Of a stretch of DNA of 64,000 nt, positions 42,121 to 42,741 are shown piece after piece. The DNA lies in assembly GCA_951406725.2 (NCBI GenBank), contig OX597838.1, positions 26,226,001 to 26,290,000 of the forward strand. Reading direction: 5' to 3'. Position 1 is the stretch's first letter; each line of letters opens with the position of its first letter. The notes under the pieces are model-generated. The model saw nothing but the letters and a program-made list of their open reading frames with translations, was not told the DNA's origin and made no database searches. Position numbers and translations under genes: made by a program. This DNA is from Octopus vulgaris (Eukaryota).

Positions 42121-42349
42121 AGTATTTAACCCGATGGGATCTTATTTAAACTCTCTTTTAATTAATTAATTAATAAATCAATTAACATTTATTACTAATT
42201 AATTACAAACTTGTTACCAGTACAAATATGCTTGAGGCATTTCGAACCGTAAGAAAGCCATTCATTGTATTTTGTTATGGTGAAAAGTTCTCGCTGTAGA
42301 CGAACTGGTGTAAGCACACCGAGTCAGCTCACAACGTCCCCTAACGAGA

Positions 42350-42397
42350 CTGTTGGATGCATGCATTTCGAAGTGGTTATCTCCTCTTCAGCAACAG
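42350..42397 (-). ncRNA. Type-I hammerhead ribozyme, canonical core
   Basis: CUGUUG-CUGAAGA-GGAG auaacca CUUC-GAAA-UGCAUGCA-UC-CAACAG. Helix I is extended by a 17-bp stem (42411-42427 with 42323-42339, 5 G-U pairs). Confidence 0.9.
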
Positions 42398-42696
42398 AGA
42401 CCGGAAAGGCAGACGCTACGAACTGACACGAGAGACAGTATCTTTCATACGATATTCCCGTCAATGACTGGATACGCTATTCAGCGGCTCACCGTACATT
42501 AAAAACATTAAAAACGGAGTGACAGCGCTCAGCAGTGATATGTATAAATACAAACTTATTACCAATTCAAATATGCTCGAGGCATACTTGAACTCGTAAG
42601 AAAGACATTCATTGTATTTTGTCAAGGAGAAAAGTTCTCGCTGTAGACAAATAGGTGTAAATACACCGAGTCATCTCACAGCGCCCCCTAACCAGA

Positions 42697-42741
42697 CTGT
42701 TGGATGCATGCATTTCGGGGTGATTATCCCCTCTTCAGCAA
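42697..42741 (-). ncRNA. Type-I hammerhead ribozyme, second copy with 5' arm truncated
   Basis: UUG-CUGAAGA-GGGG auaauca CCCC-GAAA-UGCAUGCA-UC-CAACAG; helix II covaries with the first copy. Confidence 0.85.

Follow-up and report, generated by a model that had tools for sequence, protein, structure and literature searches.

We read the insertion at positions 42204-42741 of the window (the whole stretch of 64,000 nt of Octopus vulgaris DNA that was analysed) as a 5'-truncated copy, 1.55 units long, of a non-coding repeat, old and dispersed through the genome, that carries a type I hammerhead ribozyme. It is likely a non-LTR retrozyme that was copied in by a Penelope-like reverse transcriptase (RT), probably of the Neptune clade, and it is probably inactive now. 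The probability of this reading is roughly 75%. This non-coding repeat, which combines a hammerhead with Penelope insertion marks, is likely a new family of a known class, the retrozymes.

Both the retrozyme class and its proposed link to Penelope elements are already published. In the available text of the two relevant papers, Penelope mobilisation of animal retrozymes is a proposal from co-occurrence and terminal-repeat homology (PMC7229834; 10.64898/2026.07.22.740005). The octopus family adds a mechanistic footprint, consisting of two 3'-end sites 36 nt apart, inverted arms, and two junctions with Neptune RT sequence, and it appears to extend retrozymes to cephalopods. No octopus or cephalopod retrozymes were found in the literature; a listing in Repbase, Dfam or the supplement of PMC7229834 is possible. 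The family does not show new chemistry or a new system, and the locus itself is probably a fossil.

Anatomy of the Copy in the Window

On the minus strand, one type I hammerhead core starts at 42738 and another at 42391; both have the layout CUGAAGA / helix II / GAAA / UGCAUGCA / UC. Their predicted cuts are 347 nt apart. These cores, their spacing and the boundaries of the element agree with the original prediction (Table 1). The two repeats of the copy have diverged by 13%.

The two hammerheads differ in completeness. In the 42391 copy, helix I has 6 bp, helix II has 4 bp and helix III is palindromic. There are also an internal loop and a distal stem of 17 bp with five G-U pairs (counted by hand from the predicted structure), and the extended helix I that had been described is thereby confirmed for this copy. 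Both cores had been called complete, which holds. In the 42738 copy, however, helix I is reduced to 3 bp and the distal stem is missing, since the 5' truncation of the element lies 3 nt upstream of this core, and in folding the core's own helix I has a pairing probability of 0.

Table 1. Features of the hammerhead insertion and their positions in the window.
Feature	Positions	Strand	Description
Whole insertion	42204..42741	-	about 1.55 units of the hammerhead repeat (347 nt each); truncated at the 5' end, directly before the first core
3' end of the whole insertion (42204..42741)		-	at the first of the family's two 3'-end sites
Upstream hammerhead core	42703..42738	-	helix II GGGG:CCCC, palindromic helix III; predicted cut 42703/42702
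3-bp helix I of the upstream hammerhead	42741-42739 with 42702-42700	-	
Downstream hammerhead	42350..42397	-	core 42391-42356, helix II GGAG:CUUC; predicted cut 42356/42355
6-bp helix I of the downstream hammerhead	42397-42392 with 42355-42350	-	
Distal extension of helix I, downstream hammerhead	42323..42427	-	internal loop, 3-bp stems, 17-bp stem 42427-42411 with 42339-42323
Predicted 347-nt monomer between the cut sites	42356..42702	-	as a circle, predicted to fold at -97.6 kcal/mol (z -2.9), helix I closed across the junction
First pseudo-LTR-like repeat	42549..42741	-	monomer positions about -3 to 189
Tail segment, flanked by the two 3'-end sites of the family	42510..42548	-	monomer positions about 190-228
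Remaining non-coding spacer, with the 5' arm of the extended helix I	42398..42509	-	
Second pseudo-LTR-like repeat	42204..42397	-	87% identity to the first repeat
Conserved hairpin just 5' of the 3' end	42214..42252	-	monomer positions 136-182; second occurrence 42602-42556

The spacer holds no plausible ORF, and the reading of its plus strand as GIY-YIG-like is unsupported by ORF and protein comparison. No host exon is evident in the window. ATTAATT flanks the copy on either side and may do so by chance. Assembled contigs from two runs of one study span both junctions of the element with 4-5 differences; these runs may be the assembly's own source. The minus strand at 42110-41600 carries what we take to be a decayed piece of coding sequence, similar to the C-terminal part of a LINE-type RT protein. 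It has the same orientation as the element, lies 90 nt downstream of it, and gave no Penelope protein match.

Covariation and Conservation of the Hammerhead

The genome searched comprises 2.80 billion bases in 227 contigs. The exact core pattern matches it 119 times, against 0 for the reversed control, so the core is retained in other copies; a lack of such copies had been named at the outset as an outcome that would speak against the prediction. An alignment of 75 cores was made from the 2 window cores, 60 of the family and 13 of a sister family; 7 family rows containing indels were omitted, as was 1 near-duplicate. Of the cells of this alignment, 79.7% are paired in the named structure, against 72.1% in shuffles (0 of 500 as high); double-sided changes number 81 against 40.4 in shuffles, and slid controls reach at most 51% paired. 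Double-sided changes occur in all six helix I pairs and all four helix II pairs. Helices I and II covary across the family copies; kinship among the sequences inflates the counts, and related sequences can beat such shuffles. Helix III is invariant in the alignment because the search pattern selected it.

Helix II had also been said to covary between the two copies in the window. The copies do differ as described (GGGG:CCCC in the 42738 core, GGAG:CUUC in the 42391 core), and this is weak evidence alone: the family majority is GGAG:CUCC, so the 42391 core carries one private C-to-U change and the 42738 core one double change. Likewise, the cores had been described as unchanged between diverged flanks. 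The 21 core and palindrome bases are indeed unchanged at 13% divergence, with a probability of about 0.054 by chance.

Conservation was also scored in 32 loci that were chosen blind to the core, with one misaligned row retained. Within the core, 37 of 342 cells depart from the column majority, and outside it 1061 of 5083 do; the core rate is close to that of the least variable other columns. The core is intact in 11 of these 32 loci, and core and palindrome are both intact in 6. An apparent eight-fold conservation of the core A residues was rejected as an artefact of alignment selection; the unbiased values are 8.9% vs 15.3%, again near the least variable other columns. We infer selection on the source RNAs, followed by neutral decay after insertion.

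A scan with the Rfam hammerhead models, as had been suggested, gave no match to either copy, whether at the gathering score or with E allowed up to 10. In the available text of the retrozyme papers, structure descriptors are used and a match to a curated model is not a defining feature. The build of the 42391 copy is that of canonical metazoan type I hammerheads, as far as these are described in the accessible part of PMC4209133.

Predicted Folding and Cleavage

The circular monomer (42% GC) is predicted to fold at -97.6 kcal/mol, with z -2.9 over 100 shuffles, 69% of its bases paired and helix I closed across the junction; the plus strand gives z -2.0. In the fold of the whole transcript the two palindromes pair with each other over 10 bp, and the 5' arm of the 42391 core pairs with the arm that follows the upstream cut, each with a probability near 1. 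This pairing of palindromes and arms places the 42391 core on the upstream site. When the 5' piece is removed, the 42391 hammerhead refolds onto its own site in the model, in which release of this piece from the 10-bp duplex is an assumption. The private C-to-U change in helix II favours a misfold by 4.0 kcal/mol at each cutting step.

Release of the monomer by two complete ribozymes, as first proposed, is not supported: the upstream one has no full helix I, and the downstream core would have to cut both sites. Release by one core (42391) acting twice is possible in silico. Among predicted Xenopus retrozymes, 8 of 9 did not cleave, according to the available text of Li, Clavereau and Pollet (2026; 10.64898/2026.07.22.740005).

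An Old, Dispersed Family

With the element as query, 1759 candidates were found, and the best other copy among the 40 that were scored is 78% identical. An 18-mer from the repeat has 90 matches in the genome against 1 in the control. With the window omitted and one adjacent pair merged, these matches give 88 loci, and all 88 belong to the family. Seven loci are common to the core-pattern and 18-mer lists (hand count), which suggests a family size on the order of 1,000-2,000 copies as a rough estimate.

The 169 repeat units compared are on average 84% identical to the column majority. Their median pairwise identity is 73% (13,631 pairs), and the closest pair of different loci reaches 92%. The two repeats of the window are 92% and 90% identical to the family majority, first and fifth of the 169 in a ranking that the use of the window as query favours, and the window copy is the best-preserved copy of the family found. 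Neighbouring repeats within one insertion are 77% alike, vs 73% between loci (30 pairs), and they share 26% of their non-majority bases, vs 13% for different loci. This excess is expected if both repeats came from one template lineage. The longest blocks measure 818-926 nt, at most about 2.6 units. The family is old and decayed, with no young copies among the 169 units, which speaks against the present-day activity that the original prediction implied.

A sister family (L038, L043, L056, L066 and L101-L110) makes up 14 of the 100 core-pattern matches listed (of 119). It has the same palindromic helix III and different, compensated helices I and II; it is about 65% alike over 150 nt, and its unit is about 330 nt. 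At another locus (L202), at least 7 tandem copies of a piece of about 54 nt, monomer 324-31, which holds the 5' half of the hammerhead only, lie in an inverted arm.

Penelope-Type Insertion Marks and a Probable Neptune-Type Partner

The 3' ends of the 88 loci fall into two peaks. Monomer positions 185-203 hold 31 of them, positions 204-216 only 1, and positions 217-238 another 34, with 22 elsewhere; the peak medians, 192 and 228, are 36 nt apart. According to the available text of PMC11167929, a Penelope protein in vitro uses two internal start sites and leaves an optional tail of 30-40 bp that is unique to such elements, and the two peaks match these two start sites and the tail. An inverted family piece adjoins the 5' end in 26 of the 88 loci, and the 5' ends are scattered. 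Partial tandems with an inverted 5' copy, plus the tail, are the insertion pattern of Penelope elements in the accessible part of PMC8557442. Target-site duplications show no excess in 37 loci (2 vs 2.3 at 7 nt or more). In the copies, both 3'-end sites (42549 and 42510 in the window) lie at a similar YGUA-UUU motif, which is a candidate start signal for the RT.

At two loci (L181 and L186) a family piece joins Neptune-type RT sequence within a few bases. RT and GIY-YIG domains were identified in this sequence, and a Neptune assignment is suggested by the CxxC linker and the domain order. In L181, the family piece, with its tail intact, forms the outer end of the Penelope element's inverted arm, the arrangement that a template switch would give. 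In L186, the family piece sits before a 5'-truncated ORF. The Penelope piece there is 88-91% identical to its sister copies, vs 86% for the repeat to its family majority; it thus seems to be the younger of the two, in keeping with a later insertion.

The ORF pieces of the two junction loci form one group, 76% alike, that is distinct from an apparently active family with a 781-aa frame. The unit shares no sequence with this 781-aa family, and none with the junction subfamily at 29 other loci. No family piece adjoins any of these 29 other Penelope copies, one of which has a piece about 1 kb away. Neither that active Neptune-type family with its two ORFs nor the junction subfamily is a sequence parent of the unit. 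Since no homologous autonomous element occurs in the families sampled, the case for the partner comes from 2 junctions among about 200 loci.

The 781-aa family (L098-L100, e.g. G000:C6:133343300-133352300) is of Neptune type and occurs in many equal-scoring copies. An overlapping frame in a different phase, up to 479 aa long, comes before its RT and GIY-YIG frame, and L099 has a terminal repeat of at least 447 nt that is identical at its two ends. A pattern search found no canonical hammerhead in this family. A second Neptune-type subfamily (L251-L280) has 1678 candidates that are about 90% alike. In its 3' UTR lies a motif that resembles a hammerhead: it has helix I, GAAA and the palindrome ACCGGU and lacks the canonical CUGAnGA.

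Origin of the Unit and Its RNA Template

Upstream of the core, one and the same spacer of 150 nt leads to the previous repeat, never to the end of an ORF. Twenty-one of 30 loci picked by their spacer, the window included, run from the spacer into the previous repeat, with no Penelope protein near the 30, and the unit junction is also present in 26 of the 88 loci. The 176 distinct loci have no long flank in common beyond inverted family pieces and short repeats like those of common SINEs. Penelope-type protein matches occur in 4 of 207 loci (some of them duplicate loci, one match weak), with none in the window, and an RT and GIY-YIG ORF upstream of the hammerhead repeat was not found in the family loci examined. 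A 347-nt unit that closes on itself, with no parent ORF found, argues against a Penelope terminal fragment, and the spacer, which lacks a plausible ORF, does so too. It is thus very improbable that the copies are partial tandems of the terminal repeats of an autonomous Penelope-like element, with no separate small element, even though such terminal repeats carry hammerheads and form partial tandems (PMC4209133; PMC8557442, in the parts available), most copies are little longer than one repeat, and the Penelope families sampled come from 30 loci taken after scoring 150 of 6136 candidates. The original prediction had named the pseudo-LTR (pLTR) of an adjacent autonomous Penelope element as the competing possibility; what lies upstream is the previous repeat. 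Its assignment to the retrozymes is supported: the unit, about 347 nt long, is non-coding, closes on itself and has a canonical type I hammerhead; it is dispersed, no parent ORF was found for it, and it shows Penelope-type insertion marks.

As to the template, 41 of the 88 copies span the cut site, no 3' end falls on it, and no pile-up of 5' ends was found there (5 vs 4 and 4 in the 88 loci), so the template was not a linear monomer just released by cutting. One full unit is reached by 59 copies, and 46 of these continue seamlessly. Ligation of the source monomer to a circle when the family was active is the simple explanation of this run-on, and we consider it slightly more probable than the contrary. 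The same family and the same Penelope enzyme would leave equal traces if the template had been an uncut linear multimer, or unit-length RNAs joined by precise template jumps; the family would then be a non-autonomous deletion derivative of a Penelope element with a hammerhead inherited from its parent. All the end-mapping results fit such a template equally. The rate of 5' stops rises after one unit, from 2 of 61 to 13 of 59, which also fits linear RNA or stalling at a hairpin and is partly an alignment effect of AT-rich flanks, and the stops increase at monomer 185-199, a possible transcription start. Deletion scars are absent from the cut site, deletions at monomer 36-45 being no commoner than downstream. 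In the available text of PMC11167929, moreover, unprocessed RNA serves as the main substrate in vitro, and hammerhead mutants have no effect on insertion. Against a template that never closed stand the canonical hammerhead, whose long covarying helix I closes across the junction of the circular monomer, its resemblance to the hammerheads of circle-forming retrozymes (PMC7229834, as far as accessible), the continuation of those 46 copies past position 185 and the lack of any long source arrays among the copies seen. We regard it as a substantial possibility, well short of even, and prefer the circle. A third view concerns the present, namely that selection has preserved the window copy and that it still functions as a ribozyme or a source of circles. 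The high rank of its repeats (92% and 90%, against the mean of 84%), its intact cores and palindromes and a predicted transcript fold that pairs the palindromes and forms helix I across the monomer with probabilities near 1 would suit this view. It is nonetheless unlikely: the ranking is favoured by the choice of query, the repeats differ by 13% and both ribozymes are defective, 6 of 32 unselected copies keep core and palindrome anyway, and the window has no evident host exon.

An abundant relative of the family (summed depth near 670, with a 384-nt contig in one run) was considered as a circle and rejected as a passenger of a host transcript, because its genomic copies have a broken core and palindrome inside a longer sequence. 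It maps to two places on one contig, C3 (L246:1034-1786 and L247; G000:C3:7588355 and 7604722), where a dead-core copy and an inverted partner lie within a duplicated locus; three of the runs guessed to be RNA contain this locus in abundance. The contigs of four runs guessed to be RNA hold relatives of the family only, none of them 99% alike, and two further runs of this kind gave short pieces only.

Other Hammerhead Families in the Genome

A younger, unrelated hammerhead family was found at L281-L292 (e.g. G000:C1:1863952), L018:384 and L100:5230. Its core has CUGAAGA, a helix II of GGGG:CCCC with a long loop, and a helix III of UUGG:CCAA. An exact 21-mer has 491 matches against 0 in the control; the copies are about 88-95% alike, and the unit is about 510 nt. 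The family sits in (TA)n, with inverted and partial tandem copies, and no Penelope ORF was found near it in 12 loci. It is the best candidate for present-day circles. A minimal hammerhead-like motif (CUGAnGA...CUCGAAAC) of another repeat recurs at L013:3319, L248:193 and L263:3716.

Proposed Cycle

In the past cycle that we infer, a copy of more than one unit would have been transcribed. The palindromic helices III of two neighbouring units would have paired, the hammerhead would then have cut, and ligation would probably have turned the 347-nt monomer into a circle, the main alternative being an uncut linear multimer. A Penelope enzyme would have nicked AT-rich DNA, begun at one of two internal sites 36 nt apart, crossed the cut site and fallen off at a variable point, often with an inverted partner. 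In the window copy, the 42391 core is predicted to act first on the upstream site and then, once refolded, on its own.

A more far-reaching interpretation is that the fossil copies of this cephalopod retrozyme family record the whole cycle, through the two-start-site tail, the template-switch chimeras with Neptune RT and the seamless copying across the cut site. They would then give direct evidence, from the genome, that RNA circles made by the ribozyme are reverse-transcribed by a Penelope enzyme, one core cutting both sites via palindromes paired around the monomer, and the younger family in the same genome would offer material to test it on. We propose this tentatively, as having somewhat less than an even chance of being right.

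Comparison with Known Systems

The comparisons below refer to the published texts as far as they are available. Metazoan non-LTR retrozymes measure 350-390 bp in mussel, 330/350 bp in axolotl, and 225-245 bp in coral; in all three animals, retrozymes built like the octopus unit accumulate in circular form (Cervera and de la Pena, 2020; PMC7229834). The octopus unit resembles them in being non-coding and tandem, with 347 nt within the range of 150-450 bp and a GC content below 50% (42%). It also shares the canonical type I hammerhead (helix I of 6 bp, helix II of 4 bp, helix III short and palindromic), a predicted circular fold that is self-paired, and the presence of Penelope elements in the same genome. 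Unlike these retrozymes, the octopus family is old, decayed and dispersed; its blocks reach at most about 2.6 units, whereas theirs form long arrays, up to 62-mers in coral. No target duplications were detected for it, cleavage and circles are predicted only, and it is set beside the known retrozymes by build, not by sequence.

With the hammerheads of Penelope pLTRs (PMC4209133; PMC8557442; PMC11167929) the octopus family has in common that the hammerhead opens a terminal repeat and that partial tandems and 5' truncation occur. It shares with Penelope insertions the inverted 5' partner and the optional 30-40 bp tail from two RT start sites (PMC8557442; PMC11167929). In contrast to Penelope pLTRs, the octopus unit has no ORF, a 150-nt spacer standing in its place, and its hammerhead is canonical with an extended helix I, whereas those of Penelope pLTRs are minimal.

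Vertebrate non-LTR retrozymes, which have been described as non-autonomous derivatives of Penelope elements, are, like those of octopus, mostly short dispersed copies and have the same proposed partner (Li, Clavereau and Pollet, 2026; 10.64898/2026.07.22.740005). Their link to Penelope elements comes from terminal-repeat homology and co-occurrence; in octopus, where no homologous parent was found, it comes from insertion marks and two chimeric junctions. The octopus copy has two consecutive units with complete cores, which is the working definition of a retrozyme in that study.
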